Of a DNA stretch of 64,000 bases, positions 5,440 through 61,376 are shown one piece after another. The stretch spans positions 380 through 64,379 of the forward strand of contig JAFYSJ010000006.1 of assembly GCA_017559445.1 (NCBI GenBank). The letters run 5' to 3'. The stretch is from Clostridia bacterium. GTDB lineage: Bacteria > Bacillota > Clostridia > RGIG7378. Below the pieces are notes generated by a model, which was not told where the DNA came from, made no database searches, and saw only the letters and a program-made list of their open reading frames with translations. Position numbers and translations under genes: made by a program. The stretch's first letter is position 1. Every line of letters begins with the position of its first letter.

Positions 5440-6330
5440 ATGGGAATTGAGAGAATGGATTCAAACCAAATAACTAGGGATTATTTTGACAGTCTCCTTA
5501 TTGAACTGAGGCATATAGACAGTGAAATTCCAGACACAAGCCTTACTATTTTTGGCCAGCGTTTCGAGAATCCCATTGCCACAGCAGCTTTGTCCCACTT
5601 GTATAGGACAGCTCCAGATGGCATGACCAAAATGGCTGAAGGCGCCAAGTTGGCAGGTTCTCTCTGTTTCTCAGGCATGGGCGAGGAAGAAGAGATCCAG
5701 TCTATGTGTGCCACAGGTGCAAAGGTTATTAAGATCATTAAGCCACACCAGGACAACCAAGTTGTGTTCCGCAAGATTCGCGAGGCAGAGGCAGCAGGAG
5801 CCCTTGGTGTTGGTATGGACATAGACCATGCCTTTTCGTGGCAGCAGGGATACGACGTTTGCGAAGGTTTGCATATGAGGCCTAAGTCATTGGAGGAAAT
5901 GCGTTCATTTGTGGCAGCAACTAAGCTTCCCTTTGTTGTTAAGGGTGTCTTGAGCGTTACAGATGCACTTAAGTGCTTGGAAATTGGAGCCGCAGGTATT
6001 ATCGTATCTCATCACCACGGTATTGTTAGCCACGCAATTCCACCACTCATGATTTTACCTAAGATTGTGGAGGCAGTTGGTGGCAAAATGGCTATTTTTG
6101 TAGACTGTGGTATCGAAAGTGGCATGGATGCATTCAAGGCATTGGCCCTTGGTGCAGACGCAGTTTGCATTGGCCGTCCCATTATGCCCCCTCTTAAGGA
6201 AAATGGAGCAGAGGGTGTAAGGGATAAGATTTTGGAGTTCAATAACCAGCTCAAAATCGCCATGGAGCGCACAGCATTTACATCCTTGGACCAGATAGAT
6301 AGCAGCGTAATTTATCATCGCAATTTCTAG
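5440..6330 (+). CDS. FMN-dependent alpha-hydroxy-acid dehydrogenase/oxidase family protein (short form)
   Basis: SHHHGIVSHAIPPLMILPKIVEAVGGKMAIFVDCGIESGMDAFKALALGADAVCIGRP aligns to lactate-oxidase SNHGGRQ...GGVRRGTDVFKALALGA..IGRP region. Confidence 0.75.
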   Translation: MGIERMDSNQITRDYFDSLLIELRHIDSEIPDTSLTIFGQRFENPIATAALSHLYRTAPDGMTKMAEGAKLAGSLCFSGMGEEEEIQSMCATGAKVIKIIKPHQDNQVVFRKIREAEAAGALGVGMDIDHAFSWQQGYDVCEGLHMRPKSLEEMRSFVAATKLPFVVKGVLSVTDALKCLEIGAAGIIVSHHHGIVSHAIPPLMILPKIVEAVGGKMAIFVDCGIESGMDAFKALALGADAVCIGRPIMPPLKENGAEGVRDKILEFNNQLKIAMERTAFTSLDQIDSSVIYHRNF

Positions 6331-12281: not shown

Positions 12282-13340
12282 TTATTTTGACTCAAGCAAA
12301 CCAATTTCGTATCCGCTAGCCTGAAGGTAATCGATAAGATCACCCAAAACAGTAGCGTTAGTAGTAGATACACCGTGGATAAGGTAAATAGCACCACTGT
12401 GAGCCTGGTCCTTCATGAGCTTGAGAGCATAGGCAGGATCCTTCTGGTTATCTACAAAGTAATCGTCATAGCAGAATGTCCAGAATACGGATGTGTATCC
12501 AAGGGATTCAATAATAGCCTGAGATCTCTCAGAGTACTCACCACAGGGGAAACGGAACAATGTCATGTTGTATCCGTACTTTTCATAAATCAAATCGTGC
12601 AAGCCCTGAACTTCGGAAATCTGCTTTTCCACAGTAACAGTTGGCATGCTTGGATGCCACTTAGTGTGGTTGCCTACAATATGACCTTCGTCAATCATTC
12701 TCTGAACAAGTTCAGGGGATGTGTTTAAGTAATCCTGAGTAATAAAGAATGTACCCTTAACGCCCTTTTCTTTAAGTGTGTCGAGAATCTGTGTTGTAAC
12801 AGACTTCTTGTACTCGTAACCTAAGTCAAATGTCAAATAAACTGTGTTGTTATCTTCGCCTATGTAATAAACCTTTGTGCCCTTAGCATCTGCATCTGCC
12901 TGCATAGTTACAGCACGTGTAGGTCTAACCTTGTTGCTGGATGTTCCAGACCACCATCCCTTTAATGTATTGTTGTAGCTTGCGAACTCGCCATTGTATG
13001 GAGTGGGAGTTGCAGTAGGTACAGATGTAGGCTTAGGTGTGGGTGTTGGACTTGGAGTCGCAGTAGGTGTAGGAGTCGGAGTAGGGGTTGGTGTAGGTGT
13101 AGGAGTTGGCGTAGGAGTGGGTGTGGGTGTTGGACTTGGAGTCGCAGTAGGTGTAGCTGTTGGAGTAGCTGTGGGCGTAGCAGTAGGAGTGGCTGTTGGT
13201 GTTGGAGTTGCCACTTCAGTTGGTACTGGTGTAGGTGCGTCTGATGTTATTGCGTTACTGCCTATGTATGAGCCAATAACAAAGCAAACTACAGCCACGG
13301 CTATTATAGATACTGCAAGGAAAAATTGTTTTTTGTTCAT
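12282..13340 (-). CDS. polysaccharide deacetylase (NodB-homology) with N-terminal TM and long (PT)n linker
   Basis: TFDLGYEY...GTFFITQDY...[11 protein letters not shown]odB motifs; (TPTA)n/(TP)n linker. Confidence 0.8.
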
Positions 13341-13351
13341 GTGTTCCTCCG

Positions 13352-13705
13352 TTATCGGATAAGACCAAAGCTCACTGTTAAAGCACGATCAACCCTATAC
13401 ATAAGTAGGTTGTCCACGTGACCAACTTTATCTCGTAGCCTTGATTTATCCAATGTTCTAATTTGTTCTGTGAGGATTACAGAATCCTTCTGCAACCCAT
13501 ATTCCAAAGCTCCGATTTCTATATGAGTGGGGAGCTTGGCTTTGTTCATCTGGGATGTAATCGCTGCAGCAATAACCGTAGGGCTAAACTTATTACCTGT
13601 GTCGTTCTGGATAATGAGCACTGGACGGATGCCACCTTGCTCAGAACCCACTACAGGGCTAAGGTCTGCATAAAATATATCGCCTCTCTGAACATCTATT
13701 TGCAT
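13352..13705 (-). CDS. ndoA: type II toxin, MazF/PemK (EndoA-like) mRNA interferase
   Basis: Near-collinear similarity to B. subtilis EndoA ([29 protein letters not shown]...KLPTHIEI). Confidence 0.9.
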
Positions 13706-13762
13706 TTGCGGCTACCTCCGTGTATTTGTTACGGATAGTGTTGCCCCAAATTAGGTAGTTAA

Positions 13763-14014
13763 TCACTTGGTAAACTTGTGGTTAATAAAATCTACGCAAC
13801 TTTGGCAAATCCATTTATCGCCAATGTTATGAAGATTGTCCTCTTTGCCACAAATTGCACATCTGCTCGTAGCAGCTTGGATTGTGATCGTGTTGCCCTG
13901 AAGGTTAATAGATACTGGAGAGTCAGTCTCAAGGCTAAGGGCCTTCCTGAAATTGGCAGGAATAACCACGCGACCTAACTCGTCAATATGGCGAATGTGA
14001 TTGTTATTCTCCAT
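13763..14014 (-). CDS. AbrB/MazE-fold antitoxin with C-terminal C4 zinc ribbon
   Basis: IDELGRVVIPANFRKALSL swapped-hairpin motif; CAICGK...CQSC; 57 nt upstream of toxin. Confidence 0.65.
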   Translation of the reverse strand: MENNNHIRHIDELGRVVIPANFRKALSLETDSPVSINLQGNTITIQAATSRCAICGKEDNLHNIGDKWICQSCVDFINHKFTK

Positions 14015-16383: not shown

Positions 16384-17076
16384 ATGATAGAGAAAATTTA
16401 TACCATACCCGTTAACGAAGTTTTTACAGCTAAGCCATGTTCATGTCCATTGTGTGCCATGAAGGAAAGATTTGAGCAGGATCGTATCGATTATGTACTT
16501 GGCCCTGCACTTATGGAACCAGATGTGCGTACAGCAACTAACGAAAAGGGTTTTTGCCCAAGACATTATGCCATGCTCTTTAACAGTCACAAGAACAGCG
16601 TTGGTTTGGGCCTCCTCACAAATACATATATTGAGACTGTGCAGAAAAAGTTGTCCGGAGGTATGCGTCACCGCTCCGATAAGGATTTGGCTGCAGCACT
16701 TGAGAAGATGAATAGCTCTTGCTTCATTTGTGACCAGCTTAACTTCACAATGGACAGATATATTGATGTTATTTACTGGCAGTATGCCAATGACAAGGAT
16801 TTCCGTCAGCTCTTTAGAGAGCAGGATGGATTCTGTTTAGAGCACTTCCGTCAGCTTTGCGCTAGAGCTAAAAAGGGTTTGCCTGGCAAAATGAAGGGTG
16901 AGTTCATGAACGACCTTTGTAATGTGCAGAGCCGCAAGTTGGCTGAGCTCCAGGCAGACGTGGATTGGTTTACCAAGAAGTTTGACTATAGATACAAAGA
17001 TGAGCCTTGGAATAATTCTAAGGATGCAGTTCAGAGATCTATTCAGTTCTTGAAGGGAAAAGTGGAACTTAATTAG
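16384..17076 (+). CDS. conserved cysteine-rich hypothetical protein (possibly DUF6062-like)
   Basis: CSCPLC, CPRH, CFIC, CLEH motifs; its TAG stop is the first TAG of the downstream repeat element. Confidence 0.5.
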   Translation: MIEKIYTIPVNEVFTAKPCSCPLCAMKERFEQDRIDYVLGPALMEPDVRTATNEKGFCPRHYAMLFNSHKNSVGLGLLTNTYIETVQKKLSGGMRHRSDKDLAAALEKMNSSCFICDQLNFTMDRYIDVIYWQYANDKDFRQLFREQDGFCLEHFRQLCARAKKGLPGKMKGEFMNDLCNVQSRKLAELQADVDWFTKKFDYRYKDEPWNNSKDAVQRSIQFLKGKVELN

Positions 17077-17489
17077 TGAACCACGAGCAAAGCTCGTTAG
17101 TGACCGCAAGCAAAGCTTGCTAGTATTCGCTCGTTGCACTCGCTAGTGAACCGCTGCGCCTAGTAGGCCACGAGCAGAGCTCGTTAGTGAACCGCCTTCG
17201 GCTAGTAGGCCACGAGCAGAGCTCGTTAGTGACCGCAAGCAAAGCTTGCTAGTATTCGCTCGTTGCACTCGCTAGTGAACCGCCTTCGGCTAGTGAATAT
17301 TCATTACTTTGGAACGACCCAAAGTAACCAAAAGTCGCCCGCTACTTCCGAAGCGCGGGAGGCACGGGTTTGCAAAGCTGTGCTTTGCAGTGGTTAGTGC
17401 TTAGTTATTAGTGTTTAGCGAATGAAACATGTTCCTATAATGACCATTGGAACATAGGTACCAACACTAAACACCAAAATGGGGGGATA
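17074..17489 (+). repeat. composite intergenic element copy A: hairpin/double-stop array, three-hairpin core, -10 box, CA-rich tail
   Basis: Units such as ccacgagcagagctcgtTAGTGAacc and gccttcggcTAGTAGg; core 17291-17400; TATAAT 17436-17441; cactaaacaccaaa tail. Confidence 0.75.
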
Positions 17490-17491
17490 AT

Positions 17492-19936
17492 ATGAAGAAA
17501 CTGTTGTCTGTAATGTTAGTTATTACCTTGATAGGAGTTCTTTGCGCTTGTGGAGCAGATAAAACCACGGGAGTTACTCCTACCGCCACACCCACAGTAG
17601 AGGCTACTGGTACTCCTGAACCAACAGCCAGTCCTATCACCACACCCACAGCTACTCCTACAGTAGCTCCTACAGAAGTGCCCACAGAGGCACCGACAGA
17701 GGCACCGACAGAGGCTCCTACAGCTGAGCCGACAAATGCTCCAACAACTGTTCCTGGTGCTACAGCAACGCCAGAACCAGCAGCAACAGCAACACCGGAA
17801 CCAGCACCTACGGTAACACCAAAGCCTACTGCTGTACCTGCACCTACACCGAAACCTACTGCAACTCCTAAGCCAACAGCGACACCGATTCCCACCCCCA
17901 CGCCAGTGAGAAGTGATTCCGTAGGACTTAGCTATAAGGTGAACGCAGATGGAACAACAATTACTATTACTGGCATTGGCACATGCAAAGATGAACATCT
18001 TGTTATTGGCTCCAAGATTGATGGATATACAGTAACAGCCATCGGCGATAGGGCTTTCTATGGATTGGACACCGTGTTTACTGTTACAATTGCAGACACT
18101 GTCACTAGGATAGGAAGCTACGCATTTGCAGAATGTTGGTTGATGACTGCGGCATATCTTCCAGATAGTATTACAAAAATTGATACAAATGCCTTTGCTA
18201 TGTGCGAATCCTTGGAGAGAGTAAATATTCCCAAGGGCCTTAAGGTCATAGAGCTGGGTACATTTAATGATACTATTATTAAGAGTATTGTTATTCCAGA
18301 GGGTGTAGTCGAAATTGAAGACGATGCATTCAACGATTGTCGTTTTGTTACGGAATTGGTTATCCCTAAATCAGTAATAACAATTGGTGAAAGGGCATTC
18401 CAGGGCCTCGGTGCCAAAACTTTACGCATTCCAGGAACTGTTGAGAATATCAGAGAAGGGGCTTTCTTTGGATCAGCTATTGAAACTTTGATTATTGAAG
18501 AGGGTAATCTTAAGAATGCAGAAGGTGCATTTTCTGGATGCGCAAACTTAACAACAGTATCACTTCCTAAGACACTGTCTAAAATTCATAAGAGTATGTT
18601 TGCGGAAAGTGGATTGGTTAGCTTTACTGTTCCGTCTACTATTGAATCTATAGAAGAAAATGCTTTTGAGGACTGCAATAAGTTAACAGAAGTGGTATTT
18701 TCTAATAATCTTAAGTCAATTGGAGCTGGTGTTTTTAGAGGGTGCAGTGTCCTTACGAGCATAACTATTCCAGGAAATATTGAGACTATTCCCGTAGCAG
18801 CTTTTGAAAATTGCAAGAAATTGGAGAAAGTAGTCCTTTCCGAAGGCGTAAAAAACATTCAAAAGCAAGCTTTTAAGAATTGCGAAAGGCTTGTTTCTAT
18901 AACATTCCCCAAATCTCTAGAGTTGATTTACCAGTACGCCTTTGAAAATTGTGATTCTCTTATCAAGGTTGAATTTTACAACGTAGATACTATTGGAGGT
19001 GGAGCCTTTAGAGAATGTAGGTCTTTGACTAAGGTTGTATTTGCTAATGGAGTTCGACAGATTGGAGATCAGGCGTTTTACAGATGCGAATCTCTTACAT
19101 CAATAAATTATTCCGAAGGTACAGAGTATATTGGTGAAGAAGCATTTGGAGGATGTGAATCTTTGCAGAAGATTACGATTCCAAGCACCATAAAGACTCT
19201 CGGAGAGGCTGCATTTGAAGGATGTAAATCCATAACAGAGATAGTTATCCCCAAAATTATAGTAGATATTCCCAATAAGCTTTTTAAGGAATGCTACAAG
19301 CTTAAGAATATAACTATTGAGGATGGCATTCGTAGCATTGGATTGGATGCATTTGCTTATTGTTATGCGCTTAAGGAAATTAATATCCCAAGCAGTGTAA
19401 CTACTATTGGATCTGCTGCCTTCTATAGTTCTGGATTGGAGAAAATGGTGCTTCCCAATGGTCTTACTTCTATAGAAATAAGGACATTTAGTGAATGCAG
19501 CTCTTTAAAGAGCATATACATTCCAGATAGTGTAACAACTATTGGCATGTCTGCTTTCTATAATTGCGTAGCTCTTGAAGAAATATACATTCCAGATAGT
19601 GTAACAACTTTGAGTGGTCATGCATTCTATTTGTGTAAGGCATTAACAAAGGTAAGACTTTCAGGAAACATTGAGTATGTAGATAGTAGGGCATTTGCGC
19701 ATTGCATATCACTTAAGGAATTTGTATTCCCAGAGGGTATAGAGATACTTGGTGCTTGGATATTCGAGGGATGTACGGCATTAGAAGAGGTATACATTCC
19801 AGATAGTGTAACAACAATTGATAGGGGCATATTTGCGGATTGTTCAAAACTTAAGAAGGTTCGTATTCCTGCAGGAATTGACAATCTAAGCGAGATTTTT
19901 GAATATTCAAATAACAAGGTTGAAATTGTGAACTAA
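17492..19936 (+). CDS. BspA-type leucine-rich-repeat cell-surface lipoprotein with PT-rich linker
   Basis: Signal peptide plus Cys (LIGVLCACG), about 110-aa P/T/A/E linker, more than 20 LRR_5-like repeats of about 23 aa (..L..V.IP..V..IG..AF..C..L..). Confidence 0.85.
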   Translation: MKKLLSVMLVITLIGVLCACGADKTTGVTPTATPTVEATGTPEPTASPITTPTATPTVAPTEVPTEAPTEAPTEAPTAEPTNAPTTVPGATATPEPAATATPEPAPTVTPKPTAVPAPTPKPTATPKPTATPIPTPTPVRSDSVGLSYKVNADGTTITITGIGTCKDEHLVIGSKIDGYTVTAIGDRAFYGLDTVFTVTIADTVTRIGSYAFAECWLMTAAYLPDSITKIDTNAFAMCESLERVNIPKGLKVIELGTFNDTIIKSIVIPEGVVEIEDDAFNDCRFVTELVIPKSVITIGERAFQGLGAKTLRIPGTVENIREGAFFGSAIETLIIEEGNLKNAEGAFSGCANLTTVSLPKTLSKIHKSMFAESGLVSFTVPSTIESIEENAFEDCNKLTEVVFSNNLKSIGAGVFRGCSVLTSITIPGNIETIPVAAFENCKKLEKVVLSEGVKNIQKQAFKNCERLVSITFPKSLELIYQYAFENCDSLIKVEFYNVDTIGGGAFRECRSLTKVVFANGVRQIGDQAFYRCESLTSINYSEGTEYIGEEAFGGCESLQKITIPSTIKTLGEAAFEGCKSITEIVIPKIIVDIPNKLFKECYKLKNITIEDGIRSIGLDAFAYCYALKEINIPSSVTTIGSAAFYSSGLEKMVLPNGLTSIEIRTFSECSSLKSIYIPDSVTTIGMSAFYNCVALEEIYIPDSVTTLSGHAFYLCKALTKVRLSGNIEYVDSRAFAHCISLKEFVFPEGIEILGAWIFEGCTALEEVYIPDSVTTIDRGIFADCSKLKKVRIPAGIDNLSEIFEYSNNKVEIVN

Positions 19937-20339
19937 AGCTCGTTAGTGAACCACTTCGTTAGTGAGCCGCTGCGCTAGTGGCCGCACCGTTGGTGCTAGT
20001 GAACCGGCTACGCCTAGTAGGCCACGAGCAGAGCTCGTTAGTGAGCCGCCTTTGGCTAGTGAATATTCATTACTTTGGAACGACCCAAAGTAACCAAAAG
20101 TCGCCCGCTACTTCCGAAGCGCGGGAGGCACGGTTCGCAAAGCTATGCTTTGCAGTTATTAGTTATTAGTTATTAGTGTTTAGCGAATGAAACATGTTCC
20201 TTTTAAAAATAGATCATAGGAACAAAGAAACCTGCACTAAACACCAAACACTCAACACGAAACACTAGATGCGTAGTATCTTGGAACATAGGTACCAGCA
20301 CTAACCACCAAACACTAAACACTAAAATGGGGGGATAAT
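19937..20339 (+). repeat. composite intergenic element copy B
   Basis: Same architecture as copy A, starting 1 nt after the TAA of the upstream LRR gene; has an about 110-bp insertion in the tail region. Confidence 0.75.
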
Positions 20340-23069
20340 ATGAAGAAACTGTTATCTTTAATGTTGATTATTACATTGGTAGGAGTTCTTTGCGCTTGTG
20401 AAGAGAATAGGACAACAGGAATTACTCCTACTGCCATACCTACAGCAGAGGTTACTGGTACTCCTGAACCTACAGGGACACCCACAGCCGCACCTACAGA
20501 GGAGCCTACAGTTACTCCCACGGTAGCTCCAACAGAGGAGCCAACAGAAGATCAAACAGAGACTCCTACATCTACTCCAGAGGCAAAACCTACAGTAACG
20601 CCCACACCTAAACCAACGGCAACACCCACGCCAAAACCAACGGTAACACCTACACCAAGGCCTACATCCACCCCAGCACCAACACCTACTCCCGTTAGAA
20701 GTGATTCCGTAGGCCTTGACTATACTGTGAATTCAGATGGTGTTACATGTACAGTTACAGGTATAGGTACATGTACAGATGAGCATCTTGTAATTGGCTC
20801 TAAGATTGATGGATATACAGTTACAGCTATAGGAGAAGGCGCATTCCGTGGAAACAACATTAAGACAGTAACAATTGCAAATACAGTTACCTTTATTGGC
20901 AAACATGCTTTCCGCGAATGCTCTAATTTGACAGCCGCATATCTTCCAGATAGCGTTACAACCATGGAATCAAATGTTTTTGCGTATTCCGAATCCTTAG
21001 AAAGGGTAAACATTCCTAAGGGGTTAAAGGTTATAGCACGTGGAGCATTTAGAGGTACTAAACTAAAAAGCCTTGTTCTTCCAGAGGGATTGGTCGAGAT
21101 TGAGGAAGATGCCTTTAGTGAATGCATGTATGTTACAGAGCTCGTTATACCCAAATCCTTAACCACAATTGGCGAGAGTGCATTCTTGGGGCTTGGAGCA
21201 ACAACACTGGTTATCCCAGCAACTGTAGAACATATTTCATCTGGAGCGTTTGCTGGTTCATATATCGAGAATTTGATTATTCAGGGAGATATAAAGGTTG
21301 CGGAAGGTGCCTTTGCAGAATGTGGATGCTTAAAGAATGTAGTATTCCCCAAGGATATGAGTAAGATTCAGAAGAGCATGTTCGCAGGAAGTGGTCTTGA
21401 AAGTATCACAATTCCCTCCAATATTTTAAGTATCGGTGAATATGCTTTTGCTAGTTGCGATAAATTGGTTAATGTAACAATTCCACAAAACGTTACGGTA
21501 ATTGGAATTGGAGCATTTAAGGCTTGCAGTGCCCTAAAAACAGTAACTATTCCAGGTAGTGTAGAGAATATTCCAGAATCAGCATTCTATGAATGCAAGA
21601 ATTTGGAGAAGGTTGTTATTTCCGAAGGCGTAAAAAACATATTGAAAAACGCTTTTAAGAATTGCCAAAAGCTCGTTTCTGTAACATTTCCCACAAGTCT
21701 TGATCTAATTTATCAGTATGCATTTGAGGGTTGCAATTCTCTAATTAAGGTCGAATTGCATAGCGTAACAACTATTGGCGGTGCAGCATTTAGAAATTGC
21801 AAGTCCTTAACACAGGTTAAGATTACCAAGAGTCTTAAGCAAGTTGGAGATGAGGCATTCTTGAATTGTCCTGCACTTACATACATAAATCTACCACAGG
21901 GATTAGAGTATATTGGAAGTTATTCCTTTAAGAATTGTAGTTCATTACAGAGCATAACAATTCCTAATACTGTAACAGAGATAAAGAAGAACGCTTTTGA
22001 GTTGTGTACATCTTTGAGAAAAGTTTCTATTCCAGCAAGTGTGGGAATAATTCCAGATTTCATGTTTAGGGACTGTGCTAATTTGTCCGAGGTTATTATT
22101 AGTGATGGAGTCACAGGCATTGGCCTAGGTGCTTTCTATGGGTGTTCATCACTTAAGGAGGTTGTAATACCAGAAAGTGCTACAAATCTTTCAGGTGACA
22201 TATTCTGGCTATGTACAAGTTTAGAAAAGGTCACTTTGCCTAATGGAATTGCAGCTATCCCAACATTTACATTTTTTGGATGCTCATCACTGAAGGAATT
22301 TAATTTCCCAACTTCTGCAACAACTATTGAATCAAGAGCATTTGAAGGATGCGATGCCCTTAAGGAAATAGTAATTCCAGAAAGAATAACAAAAATAGAG
22401 AGTGCTGTATTTAGAAATTGCGAGTCTTTAGAAAAAGTGGTTCTCCATAATGGAATTACTGTTATTAGCGAAAGCTTATTCTATGGTTGCAAATCCTTGA
22501 AAGTGGTTAATATACCAAACAGTGTAACTACGATTGAACATGGAGCCTTTGAAGAATGTAGTTCTTTGGAAGAAATCTATATTCCAGAAAGTGTAACATC
22601 CTTTGGAACTAGCGTATTTAGATTTTGCTATTCTCTAAAGAAAGTAAATATCCCTAATGGAATCACTACTATTCCTATGTCAATGTTTGGAAGTTGTAAA
22701 TCCCTTAAGGAAATAGAAATTCCAGAAAGTGTAACATTTATTGATATGGGCGCATTCGGAGGGTGTACGAAGCTGGAAAAGGTTGTTCTTCCTAGCGGAC
22801 TAACACGTCTGAGTACCAGTGTTTTTGATGGATGCAGTTCTCTGAAAAATATTAATATCCCTGAAGGCATTACAGGTATATGGTGGGAGGTATTCCGTGA
22901 TTGTGTTTCCTTGGAGGAAATCTACTTACCAGATAGTGTAAAGACAATAGAAAGATATGCATTTAAGGGATGCACAAAATTAAGGAAGATTCGAATTCCA
23001 GCTACAGCGCAATGGTCTGAGGAAGCATTTGAGGGATGTCCCGATGATTTGGAGATTATAGTGGAGTAA
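20340..23069 (+). CDS. BspA-type leucine-rich-repeat cell-surface lipoprotein (tandem paralog)
   Basis: N-terminus, RBS and linker nearly identical to the 17492 gene; longer LRR array. Confidence 0.85.
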   Translation: MKKLLSLMLIITLVGVLCACEENRTTGITPTAIPTAEVTGTPEPTGTPTAAPTEEPTVTPTVAPTEEPTEDQTETPTSTPEAKPTVTPTPKPTATPTPKPTVTPTPRPTSTPAPTPTPVRSDSVGLDYTVNSDGVTCTVTGIGTCTDEHLVIGSKIDGYTVTAIGEGAFRGNNIKTVTIANTVTFIGKHAFRECSNLTAAYLPDSVTTMESNVFAYSESLERVNIPKGLKVIARGAFRGTKLKSLVLPEGLVEIEEDAFSECMYVTELVIPKSLTTIGESAFLGLGATTLVIPATVEHISSGAFAGSYIENLIIQGDIKVAEGAFAECGCLKNVVFPKDMSKIQKSMFAGSGLESITIPSNILSIGEYAFASCDKLVNVTIPQNVTVIGIGAFKACSALKTVTIPGSVENIPESAFYECKNLEKVVISEGVKNILKNAFKNCQKLVSVTFPTSLDLIYQYAFEGCNSLIKVELHSVTTIGGAAFRNCKSLTQVKITKSLKQVGDEAFLNCPALTYINLPQGLEYIGSYSFKNCSSLQSITIPNTVTEIKKNAFELCTSLRKVSIPASVGIIPDFMFRDCANLSEVIISDGVTGIGLGAFYGCSSLKEVVIPESATNLSGDIFWLCTSLEKVTLPNGIAAIPTFTFFGCSSLKEFNFPTSATTIESRAFEGCDALKEIVIPERITKIESAVFRNCESLEKVVLHNGITVISESLFYGCKSLKVVNIPNSVTTIEHGAFEECSSLEEIYIPESVTSFGTSVFRFCYSLKKVNIPNGITTIPMSMFGSCKSLKEIEIPESVTFIDMGAFGGCTKLEKVVLPSGLTRLSTSVFDGCSSLKNINIPEGITGIWWEVFRDCVSLEEIYLPDSVKTIERYAFKGCTKLRKIRIPATAQWSEEAFEGCPDDLEIIVE

Positions 23070-23142
23070 TGCGCTACGTGTGTGAAAAGTGCTACACACG
23101 TGAAATGGCATAGCCATAATAAATCTAGTTCAAACAATCAAA

Positions 23143-23183
23143 AAGGAGAATTTGTGAATTCACAAATTCTCCTTTATTAATTT
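23143..23183. terminator. bidirectional rho-independent terminator
   Basis: Perfect palindrome aaaggagaatttgtgaattcacaaattctccttt flanked by A/T runs between convergent genes. Confidence 0.6.
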
Positions 23184-23227
23184 CATGTACCGATTAAACC
23201 GAGCCACCTGCGTTGATTTGCAGTGAA

Positions 23228-23320
23228 AGGTGAAGAATGTTGAAAATATGGTTTTATAATGACCATTGGACCATAGGGACCAGCACTAAACTCCAAACAC
23301 TAACCACTCAACACTTATAA
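23228..23320 (+). repeat. remnant of the element tail (-10 box plus CA-rich region) without downstream gene
   Basis: ttataatgaccattggaccatagggaccagcactaaactccaaacactaaccactcaacac matches the tails of copies A, B and C. Confidence 0.45.
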
Positions 23321-40826: not shown

Positions 40827-41756
40827 ATGTGTAGGAGGATTTTAATGCGCATATCAAATAAGAAGTTAGTGTTCGCTGCATTTATAAGCGTTTTTTTAGT
40901 GTTCTTAATTCTTGGATGTGTGATTGGTGTGAGCTATTGTATAAAAGGCTCTGTGTATTTTCTTCTTCAAAATATTATTTCTATTGCCTATATTCTTTTG
41001 TGTGTTATGGCAATCGTTATACTAAATGAAAAACCTAGAGTATTTAGTGTTGCCCTGATAATTGCAAATAGTGTTTTAGCTATAGGTAGGCTGTACCTTT
41101 TAACATATAGAATATATCATCGACTGCTGTTTCTTACCTTTGTTTTGAGTGTTCTTTACTTTGGTTTTTGCTTATTGCTTTCTTCTATCTCTCGAAAACA
41201 ACAGGATAAAAATAAGCTGAAACTAAATGGTGTCATGCCGCTTCTTACTGTAGGCATATCCTTGGTGGTGGAAGGCCTGGAGGTGAGTGAATTAATTGAA
41301 ACAGAGATTCCTTTACCACGTGATTGGATTTGGATTACGCTTGTGCTTTCCTTGATTGCCGTTGTTGTAGGGGCGATAGTTATTAAGGATCGAGAAAATA
41401 AAAAAGAGTATGTTGGAAAATTATGTGGAGTCTTCTTTACAGTAATATTTGTCGTTTTTGTACTCCCACTAATGTCTATTGGGTATGTGAATTACGTCTT
41501 TGATACATCTACACCAGAACCTATAAAAAGTGTAGTTGTAGATACGTATACGAAGTCTAGTCCTAGAAGTCCTTCACGAAGTTATCACTTGGTATTGAAT
41601 GTAGATGGAGAGGAAGTAAACTTTGATACAAATGGAGTACTGTACTCCCAATATCAAGAAGGAGATACGGTCTGTTTGTTCAAGTATGAAGGCGCATTTG
41701 GCTGGACTTACTATGAATATCAATTCGATGACATTTATCATTACAATGAGAAATAA
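40827..41756 (+). CDS. hypothetical polytopic membrane protein
   Basis: 6-7 predicted TM helices; flanked by near-identical terminator hairpins. Confidence 0.5.
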   Translation: MCRRILMRISNKKLVFAAFISVFLVFLILGCVIGVSYCIKGSVYFLLQNIISIAYILLCVMAIVILNEKPRVFSVALIIANSVLAIGRLYLLTYRIYHRLLFLTFVLSVLYFGFCLLLSSISRKQQDKNKLKLNGVMPLLTVGISLVVEGLEVSELIETEIPLPRDWIWITLVLSLIAVVVGAIVIKDRENKKEYVGKLCGVFFTVIFVVFVLPLMSIGYVNYVFDTSTPEPIKSVVVDTYTKSSPRSPSRSYHLVLNVDGEEVNFDTNGVLYSQYQEGDTVCLFKYEGAFGWTYYEYQFDDIYHYNEK

Positions 41757-41808: not shown

Positions 41809-41903
41809 GTGTAAAACACATTTTTCCAAGGTTTTTAGGGTATAAAACACACATTTTTCCAAGGTTTTTAGGGTATAAAACACACATTTTTCCAAATAAG
41901 GGC
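41809..41903. repeat. tandem direct repeat, about 33-bp unit, about 2.9 copies
   Basis: gt(g/a)taaaacaca(ca)tttttccaaggtttttaggg repeated head-to-tail. Confidence 0.7.
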
Positions 41904-53911: not shown

Positions 53912-53931
53912 GTTGTCCTTTCTATGGCGAA

Positions 53932-54060
53932 GCTCTTTACTAGCAACGCAGTTGCGGCTCACTAGCACAAATAGTGCGTTTTACTAGCGAGCTTGCTCGC
54001 GGCTCATTAGCAAGCTGTGCTTGCGTTTAACTGGCATCGTGCGAAGCTTTGCTTCAGCAC
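53932..54060 (-). repeat. element copy E (hairpin/double-stop array, minus orientation) between rnhA stop and rluB-like start
   Basis: cactagc/tactagc units; the rnhA TGA stop lies in the first hairpin gtgctgaagcaaagcttcgcac. Confidence 0.65.
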
Positions 54061-61112: not shown

Positions 61113-61376
61113 TTGAAGGTCAAAAATTAGGGGAGTATAATGAAGGTGCCTGGGATGTTCGGTTAACCTAATATTTTGAACCTACACCGAGTAAAAGGGG
61201 ACTTAGGTTTGTGAGGGATGTCGGGCTTCATCATTCGGCCTTATGGTCGGCAGTAGAGGACAGTAACGATGCAACAGAGACCCCACCTAGCATATGCTGG
61301 GTGTCAAAATACGGGACTCGGCATATCCGGGTTTTAAGGATTATGAGGCGGATGGCGGTGGCTGTCCGCTTTTTTG
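61113..61376 (+). ncRNA. candidate small RNA / structured leader (about 230 nt) delimited by promoter and terminator
   Basis: TTGAAG-17-TATAAT (61113-61141); terminator gcggatggcggtggctgtccgc plus T7 (61347-61376); 5' tattttga pairs with 3' tcaaaata; no T-box consensus seen. Confidence 0.3.

Follow-up and report, generated by a model that had tools for sequence, protein, structure and literature searches.

Strain-variable hairpin arrays and two further noncoding modules directly 3′ of genes in a rumen Clostridia lineage

The window analysed here is a stretch of 64,000 nucleotides from a Clostridia bacterium (contig JAFYSJ010000006.1 of assembly GCA_017559445.1), in which the gene for a DUF6062 protein runs directly into a dense series of short palindromes. 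A first-pass annotation, made from the letters of the DNA alone, had described this series as one of five copies of a dispersed element inserted at gene 3′ ends. What are these repeats, and why do they lie where genes end? We found that three noncoding modules accumulate directly 3′ of open reading frames (ORFs) in this rumen lineage: arrays of short hairpin units, a core of three hairpins, and long hairpins built from tandem heptamers. Most likely, the arrays are a variant of repetitive extragenic palindromic (REP) elements, transcribed as hairpins of 3′ untranslated regions (UTRs) and turning over by recombination at the linkers between units; we assign this reading a probability of about 0.45.

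The analysis covered the window and sequence beyond its right end, which was reached via a longer contig, and thus ~66 kb of genome in total. Arrays were sought by scanning the whole window for [CT]TAGT[AG][AGT] sites, and units were parsed by cutting after the A of each TAG (n = 64, from the window, strain alleles and the additional array G described below). Strain loci were collected by exact protein-match look-ups in other rumen metagenomes. The window sequence itself comes from a short-read metagenome assembly (assembler k = 141).

Arrays of hairpin units and their positions

The motif scan recovered all five arrays where the first-pass annotation had placed them, and no comparable (C/T)TAGT clusters were found elsewhere in the 64 kb. 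Within the clusters, the linker sites are 16-24 nt apart. A sixth array, G, lies 1.3 kb beyond the right end of the window, giving at least six arrays with about 50 units in ~66 kb. The arrays in the window are the following.

Array A, 17074..17297, + strand: 10 units, with 11 linker sites at 17073-17290.
Array B, 19937..20063, + strand: about 7 units, with 7 linker sites at 19943-20056.
Array C, 34520..34685, − strand: 8 units, with 8 linker sites at 34521-34677.
Array D, 32048..32202, − strand: 8 units including a 61-nt (3-unit) duplication, with 7 linker sites at 32056-32179.
Array E, 53926..54056, − strand: degenerate, about 5 units, with 3 linker sites at 53937-53981.

The 64 parsed units share a simple grammar, 5′-GT(G/A)(A/G) - (N)CC - stem-loop-stem - (C/T)TA-3′, and are 15-24 nt long. 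The stems of most units are perfect, GC-rich and 4-6 bp long, with loops of 3-4 nt that include the UUCG type. The leading tag is GTGA in 40 units (62%), GTAG in 10 (16%), GTAT in 7, GTGG in 4 and GTAA in 3, while the tail is CTA in 49 and TTA in 15. What is fixed across all units is the GT together with the preceding (C/T)TA, that is, (C/T)TAGT. All units of all arrays are joined head to tail, without exception, and the junctions read (C/T)TAGTRR. Therefore, the TAGTGA seen after the hairpins is the tail of one unit meeting the tag of the next. The double stop codons reported to follow each hairpin hold for the first triplet, which is constant, but the second is a stop in only 53 of the 64 units (TGA 40, TAG 10, TAA 3) and TAT or TGG in the other 11. 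It is thus doubtful that double stops are a designed feature, since the invariant part is a fixed (C/T)TAGT and not a generic stop. The unit sequences quoted earlier are indeed present and mostly form hairpins, but their stems are 4-6 bp long and the type GCTCGTTGCACTCGC forms none.

The constant part of a unit amounts to 9-13 nt, and the variable palindromic part (5-15 nt) is drawn from a common pool. About a dozen stem types recur, and identical unit bodies are found in separate arrays: GCCACGAGCAGAGCTCG is common to A, B and C, and CCGCACCGTTGGTG occurs in B, G and one allele of A. When units are compared across arrays and alleles, the linker stays with the hairpin 3′ of it. CTAG is dense in the arrays (34 per kb, against 1.4 per kb outside), as had been remarked, but its supposed rarity is mild, with 116 occurrences observed overall against 146 expected under a Markov model. 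Since CTAG reads the same on both strands and no multiple of three governs unit length, no frame stays open, and every array contains at least one stop in each of the six. Stop usage in the window is ordinary (TAA 42, TGA 8, TAG 7), which rules out the idea of pyrrolysine or leaky TAG decoding.

The description of a dispersed family of short palindromes lying mostly just 3′ of ORFs in gene orientation is borne out: five of the six arrays lie at the 3′ ends of co-oriented genes, and all six match the direction of a flanking gene (A and B on the + strand; C, D and E on the − strand). GC skew is positive throughout the window, so that the + strand is the leading strand over its entire length. Since arrays occupy both strands, their orientation is independent of replication.

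The relation to the stop codon differs from site to site. At site A, the first linker TAG (17074-17076) is itself the stop codon of the DUF6062 gene (16384-17076). Array B begins with a truncated unit right after the TAA (19934-19936) of the LRR-1 gene. At site C, translation of dapF (34658-35494, − strand) passes through unit 1 and terminates at the TAG of unit 2; since DapF orthologues end 4-6 residues earlier than the DapF of the window, the C-terminal tail ..SEPHRRC* is encoded by unit 1. Array E lies within one operon, between rnhA, whose TGA (54054-54056) adjoins a truncated unit, and an rluB-like gene, and is flanked on both sides by the 8-nt direct repeat AGCTTCGC. Array G, with 9 units, starts from the TAA of a ParA-like gene past the right edge of the window; the sequence at its start, TAATGGACGCAAGC, is closely similar to the linker TAGTGGCCGCAAGC, and a genuine intrinsic terminator follows ~50 nt 3′ of the array, which places G within a 3′ UTR. 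Array D lies between two divergent genes, an HD-domain gene (start 32219, + strand) and type III glnA (start 31866, − strand), upstream of the glnA promoter TTGACA-17-TAAAAT. Overall, four to five arrays overlap or abut the upstream stop, one lies between stop and terminator, and one between divergent genes. The claim that copies begin at or 1 nt after a stop codon is thus accurate for LRR-1 and rnhA, whose stops abut truncated units, but at A the stop is shared and at dapF it lies in the second unit; the further description of copies as inserted exactly at gene 3′ ends fails at D. An insertion preference for stop codons is possible, with D as the array that is not at a stop.

A folded core and heptamer hairpins

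Arrays A, B and C are parts of composites, in which the array is joined to a core of ~87 nt with three hairpins and to a long hairpin of heptamer repeats, so that the 416-nt stretch at A is a mosaic. In an alignment of the A, B and C composites, strong similarity is found outside the arrays, mainly in the core. The single element of ~400 nt in five copies therefore has to be replaced by three separable modules, since the core is missing from arrays E and G and from some strain alleles of A, and cores without arrays are found in the relatives' loci L001 and L050 and in the phage copies described below. The copies of the second and third modules in the window are listed here.

Core copy A, 17304..17390, + strand: P1 at 17304-17327, P2 at 17338-17359, then AGGCACGG, and P3 at 17369-17390.
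Core copy B, 20070..20155, + strand.
Core copy C, 34430..34513, − strand.
Long hairpin A, 17391..17478, + strand: 7-nt repeats, TTAGTGY.. in the left arm and CACTAAA/CACCAAA in the right arm.
Heptamer hairpin region B, 20156..20326, + strand: (AGTTATT)n ... (CACTAAA)n, upstream of LRR-2 (ATG 20340).
Heptamer hairpin region C, 34322..34429, − strand: upstream of the promoter of tRNA-Arg(ACG) (tRNA at 34158-34234, − strand).
Degenerate heptamer-hairpin remnant beside D, 31990..32047, − strand: TAGCGAATGAAA.., CACTAAAATATACC...
Remnant F, 23213..23316, + strand: the 3′ half of P3 and a heptamer hairpin, between the LRR-2 terminator and a DUF1846 gene.

P1 of the core reads TTACTTTGG-AACGAC-CCAAAGTAA, P2 is CCCGC...GCGGG followed by AGGCACGG, and P3 is a variable hairpin. 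An exact 23-mer of the core was found at one locus in the GTDB genomes, in a sister metagenome-assembled genome (MAG). There (L001, 471-563, − strand) the core follows the stop of a small gene, P3 differs, and P2 carries a compensatory change from CCCGC/GCGGG to CCGGC/GCCGG. In strains of the sister species with identical DapF, a core lies 3 nt past the TAA of an ALGX gene at one locus (L050, 1-80, − strand), and at another (L049, 5100-5430, − strand) heptamers directly follow the ALGX TAA without a core; core presence is therefore polymorphic in that species.

A weak blastn match linked the core to a phage record from human faeces (GenBank MT836752). In IMG/VR, a first, overly strict core pattern had no match, and the core pattern used thereafter was found in 24 viral contigs (loci L055-L078). 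The locus L079 was rejected as a chance match in GC-rich coding DNA. In 23 of the 24 contigs, which fall into two groups of related contigs, the motif lies behind a recognisable upstream-gene end. In L056, it occupies 6190-6290 and starts about 10-20 nt past the stop codon of a gene with a match to Pfam Phage_capsid_4/3 (E about 1e-11); the capsid assignment is by annotation in L056 only, and the other 22 contigs share the upstream-gene end in two sequence groups. The 24th contig, L070, has the same rearranged upstream flank as MT836752; that record shares the motif but not the capsid position and has its flanking ORFs on the opposite strand. In the phage copies, P2 and the following AGGCACG are nearly identical to those of the window, P1 is another helix, of 11 bp, in which three pairs are doubly compensated relative to the window, P3 covaries throughout, and a long fourth hairpin follows.

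Coding sequence was ruled out for the core, because indels between its copies, including those between phage and other copies, are not multiples of three. Judged from these comparisons, the core is a real, conserved folded element located 3′ of ORFs in phages and bacteria. The covariation of P1 and P3 between bacterial 3′ UTRs and the 3′ side of phage capsid genes, together with the compensatory pair in P2 of the sister MAG, suggests a portable device for mRNA 3′ ends. We infer that, after a highly expressed gene, it may control the mRNA 3′ end by stabilising the transcript, by directing its processing or by terminating it in part. At gathering score, Rfam had no match in the window for the array, the core or the heptamer hairpin and recognised only tRNA-Arg and 6S RNA, while a permissive search (E up to 5-10) of A/B, L001 and a phage copy gave nothing credible beyond chance miRNA-like matches. 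The core is a plausible candidate for a new structured RNA absent from Rfam.

The third module is in general an imperfect hairpin with tandem heptamers in both arms, similar to TTAGTGT in the left arm and to CACTAAA in the right. The hairpin at A stops just short of the ribosome-binding site of LRR-1 (ATG 17492). In the relative L051, the site that matches the remnant beside D is occupied by a complete hairpin, (GAAGTAA)n/(CTTCTTA)n. Array E is accompanied by neither core nor heptamers. A remnant of the repeat family had been annotated at 23228-23320; its heptamer-hairpin part stands, as F, and hairpin/TAGT units are absent from it. In relatives, hairpins of heptamer blocks (L051, 13651-14060; L049, 5118-5386, − strand; L042, 2122-2264; L001, 280-470, − strand) lie immediately 3′ of stop codons or between the HD gene and glnA and are built from (GAAGTAA)n/(CTTCTTA)n, (GTGAAGA)n and others. 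Their heptamer sequence varies by locus, with a stop triplet in every one. Selection of the heptamers for stops in all frames was not significant, as a purine/AT-rich heptamer contains a stop with a probability of about 0.63. A promoter inside the heptamer hairpin (TATAAT in A) was likewise rejected, being conserved in neither B nor C and giving no scan match.

Strain alleles and empty sites in relatives

Site A varies greatly between strains. Five alleles were found, with 4, 6, 6, 8 and 10 units and differing unit contents, behind an identical upstream protein, and the array starts at the same nucleotide in all strains. Three of them recur, each in at least two independently assembled samples (window = L005 = L007; L006 = L011; L012 = L013, from different samples and assemblers), and are therefore not assembly errors. 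The flanks are 98.6-99.6% identical between strains with different alleles and at least 99.95% identical among strains with the same allele. At site C, strain L080 lacks two units, deleted precisely between two identical CTAGTAGGCC linkers, and at site D, strain L002 lacks one 61-nt block of three units. With unit-level alleles that already differ at about 1% genome divergence, the arrays could serve to tell strains of this rumen organism apart at very fine resolution. Several metagenome contigs break off within arrays, and the arrays explain the fragmentation of this organism's metagenome assemblies.

In the comparison of empty and occupied sites that the first-pass annotation had proposed, orthologous sites were empty of arrays at rnhA-rluB, dapF-tRNA, HD-glnA and the 3′ end of the DUF6062 gene. 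First, the sister MAG GCA_045588325 (RnhA 79% and DapF 84% identity) has a short rnhA-rluB spacer and a dapF-tRNA spacer without array or core. Second, the rnhA-rluB spacer of the L042-L047 lineage (RnhA 80%) consists of a heptamer hairpin and one further hairpin, with no array; in L042, a single hairpin, GCGAAGC..GCTTCGC, lies at the position of E, which hints that arrays could grow from, or into, a hairpin that is already present. Third, in L052 (DapF 84%) the DapF reading frame runs into the P1 arm of a core with an internal deletion (860-960), which contributes the final four codons and the stop (YVTLE*; GTT ACT TTG GAA TAA). That the end of this DapF lies in the core shows that a core was present at dapF before array C came to lie between ORF and core. 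Finally, L051 of GCA_054295925 (DapF 73%) has a plain terminator after dapF and a large heptamer hairpin between the HD gene and glnA. With dapF of the window ending in array C and that of L052 in the core, the last codons and the stop can be supplied by a repeat, and the elements thus reshape protein C-termini.

In GCA_054295925, the DUF6062 and DUF1846 genes are directly convergent, and the part of the window from 17.1 to 23.3 kb (A, LRR-1, B, LRR-2, F) is therefore an insertion. Relative to GCA_054295925, the inserted segment is 17077-23320, ~6.2 kb with two LRR lipoprotein genes and A, B and F. In three strains, array A is followed by unrelated DNA and a terminator instead of the core and the LRR genes. 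The arrays thus mark a structural-variation breakpoint. A search for homologues of LRR-1 returned distant LRR proteins only, at about 30% identity.

About 59 kb of sequence from these relatives contained no array. Since this sequence lacks arrays and the orthologous sites are empty, the array family looks like a recent, species-specific expansion, and by the same comparisons the core and the heptamer hairpins appear to be older than the arrays in this clade. In the JGI metagenomes, nothing but 22 simple tandem repeats, all unrelated, matched a three-linker pattern, so the family is absent from that collection; a scan of IMG/VR with the array pattern and a blastn search of plasmids gave no match.

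Elsewhere in the window, a perfect 33-nt tandem repeat, ACACATTTTTCCAAGGTTTTTAGGGTATAAAAC, is present in 2.4 copies at 41816-41895, just after a 309-aa ORF without Pfam match (40827-41756). In the sister MAG, the AAA_17 and Hexapep genes that flank this ORF in the window are ~125 nt apart, and the ORF and the repeat appear to be missing. Degenerate 6/24/84-nt tandem repeats at 12995-13202 lie in a 352-aa minus-strand ORF (12282-13340) without Pfam match, which probably encodes a low-complexity repeat protein and adjoins a PemK/MazE toxin-antitoxin pair (13352-14014). The 6S RNA (Rfam RF00013, 52 bits) lies at 61144-61337 on the + strand, upstream of leuS.

Competing explanations and known systems

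In the mechanism that we favour, the arrays would be transcribed within the upstream mRNA, and their stacked stable hairpins would, like REPs, block 3′-to-5′ exonucleases and uncouple the upstream cistron from what follows. With every frame closed by the CTAG linkers and the non-triplet unit lengths, an array that falls on a stop codon or removes it would cost the protein only a few residues, so that insertion on a stop would be nearly harmless. Recombination or slippage at the invariant linkers would account for turnover and for exchange between sites. The RNA-level function is inferred from position and orientation only, and several observations weigh against it. Array D is at no stop codon, and in its divergent promoter region a 3′-UTR role makes no sense; the unit type that forms no hairpin is a recurrent one; and the units show no G-U pairs of the kind that would mark selection on RNA over DNA. 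The folding z-scores of whole arrays are modest (−1.2 to −3.6), because shuffled GC-rich sequence folds too. The orientation bias has p of about 0.03 with six arrays only, and the 3′ positional bias is that of ~66 kb of this genome. Finally, the extreme turnover and the species restriction are equally compatible with a selfish or neutral repeat.

The arrays may indeed be a functionless, minisatellite-like repeat that spreads by gene conversion, ectopic recombination or slippage and persists where it does little harm, which we consider somewhat unlikely. The rapid allele turnover at about 1% flank divergence and the block duplications within arrays are what such a repeat would show, as are the degenerate state of E and the location of D in a promoter region; moreover, relatives without arrays manage with plain terminators at the same sites. 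However, perfect palindromy over about a dozen stems needs either selection on the hairpins or a copy mechanism that restores them, and sense orientation in six of six arrays requires at least purifying selection.

Another explanation is that the arrays are true REPs, non-autonomous and moved in single-stranded form by a Y1 (HUH) transposase of the REP-associated tyrosine transposase (RAYT)/IS200 type that is encoded elsewhere and recognises the hairpin and the adjacent tetranucleotide. Each unit would end in the target of the next insertion, giving head-to-tail growth, and TAG stops would be the entry points. The succession of tag, spacer, short stem-loop and 3-nt tail matches that of GTAG-1/-2 REPs, the left borders of A, C, D and of the L001 core lie directly after TAG, and the linker travels with the hairpin 3′ of it. 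A species-specific expansion with empty orthologous sites would also be expected, and IS200-class Y1 transposases are well represented in Clostridia (PMC6006769). However, Y1 transposition is coupled to the lagging-strand template, whereas the orientation of the arrays (two on the + strand, three on the −) tracks transcription and not the replication strand. In addition, the dominant tag is GTGA (40/64) and not GTAG, known families have few or no REP pairs in head-to-tail order, and unit indels fall between identical linkers, as plain recombination predicts. GTAG REPs are defined by a cognate RAYT gene, which as a rule has REPs at its sides; no Y1 transposase gene was found in the window or the neighbouring loci (~66 kb of genome), though one gene per genome is easily missed. 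Taken together, we regard this explanation as unlikely.

Less probable still is a mini-element that homes on stop codons, with an enzyme or an RNA-templated process inserting units at TAG in the transcribed orientation and regenerating the target each time, so that strain-variable arrays would result; together with the core, such units would form a mobile 3′-UTR toolkit shared between gut phages and their hosts. A role at the DNA level, in which a protein would bind the clustered (C/T)TAGT sites or extruded hairpins and set up supercoiling domains or insulation, in the manner of REPs and bacterial interspersed mosaic elements (BIMEs) that bind gyrase, IHF and Pol I, seems very improbable. The invariant pentamer recurs every 16-24 nt, roughly two helical turns, D lies between divergent promoters, and REPs and BIMEs are reported to bind several proteins (PMC2817692). 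Against this, the spacing is irregular (15 to 24 nt), no candidate protein was identified, and a strand-symmetric role would not predict strict orientation with transcription. An artefact or an ordinary feature is hardly credible: repeats are error-prone in short-read metagenome assemblies such as this one, but identical alleles came from different samples and assemblers and the identical stretches shared between arrays (68 nt or less) are far below the assembler k; CRISPR arrays have constant repeats of 24-48 nt, unique spacers of similar size and cas genes, whereas here just 9-13 nt of a unit are constant, the variable part is palindromic and the annotated neighbourhoods contain no cas genes; stacked intrinsic terminators are rejected because no unit hairpin is followed by a U-tract and a genuine terminator stands 3′ of array G; and coding sequence is incompatible with six closed frames.

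To our knowledge, nearly all REP-type repeats described so far come from Proteobacteria and a few other phyla, and their mode of spread is poorly understood. A strictly directional, recently expanded and strain-variable family in Clostridia would offer a natural system for studying the origin, movement and turnover of REP-like repeats.

Among known systems, miniature inverted-repeat transposable elements had been suggested as relatives, and this proposal does not hold: the array and composite ends, as read without a dedicated inverted-repeat search, show no terminal inverted repeats, and no consistent target-site duplication is present, the repeat around E being the sole flanking direct repeat. 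The heptamer module recalls the tandem heptamers of the cyanobacterium Calothrix PCC 7601, heptameric simple sequence repeats being over-represented in bacteria (PMC4692102); both are tandem 7-nt intergenic repeats that vary between close relatives (PMC4692102). Unlike in cyanobacteria, the heptamers here form two complementary blocks that pair into a long hairpin around a central stem-loop, directly after stop codons. As in the BIMEs of enterobacteria, palindromic units form mosaics with further conserved motifs of intergenic DNA, in 3′ UTRs and between the genes of operons. However, BIMEs contain REPs in alternating orientation at regular spacing (PMC2817692), whereas all units here have one orientation and the core and heptamer hairpin are unrelated to BIME motifs; the label BIME-like is thus not appropriate.

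In their behaviour, the arrays resemble mycobacterial interspersed repetitive units (MIRUs), which are also direct repeats at ORF boundaries. MIRUs are direct tandem repeats in the intergenic regions of operons, oriented as the genes are, and their strain-variable copy number is the basis of MIRU-variable number tandem repeat (VNTR) typing. At MIRU loci the variation is mainly in copy number, and the arrays vary in unit content as well. Unlike the arrays, MIRUs are 40-100 bp long and non-palindromic, and in place of stop codons they contain a small ORF that is translationally coupled. They are apparently mobile and lie at ORF boundaries so as to limit damage to expression (PMC12548453).

The closest kind are the GTAG-tagged REPs, especially GTAG-1/-2 of Pseudomonas and Thauera (Di Nocera et al. 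2013, PMC3733652). REPs measure 20-40 bp with stems of 6-13 bp (mostly 6-9, exceptionally 5), and at 15-24 nt with stems of 4-6 bp the present units lie at or below the lower limit. Their tag GTAG is conserved in >90% of members (variants GYAG, GYRG, GTRG, GTMG, GTGG), whereas here the tag is mainly GTGA, with GTAG in 16%, and the invariant part is (C/T)TAGT. The arrays further differ in their purely head-to-tail order, which is missing or under-represented among known families, and in their Clostridia host, since GTAG REPs are not reported from Firmicutes (PMC3733652); their orientation is also tied to transcription. On the other hand, the first-pass description as REP-like agrees well with the anatomy of the units. 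As in GTAG REPs, a short GC-rich stem-loop (REP loops are of 2-4 nt) is preceded by an unpaired, GT-initial tetranucleotide tag, and as in GTAG-1/-2, few unpaired nucleotides (2-3 here) separate the tag from the stem and a 3-nt motif lies on its far side. Many stem variants are kept complementary in both. REPs are high-copy, dispersed, extragenic and mostly downstream of ORFs, as are the six arrays in about 66 kb. GTAG REPs are thought to be transcribed, and the TAG of their tag often supplies the stop of the flanking ORF (PMC3733652), just as a linker TAG is lent to the DUF6062 gene here. Like the arrays, GTAG REPs are clustered in some species (in Thauera, elements with 5-bp stems form clusters) and vary in copy number and type between strains.

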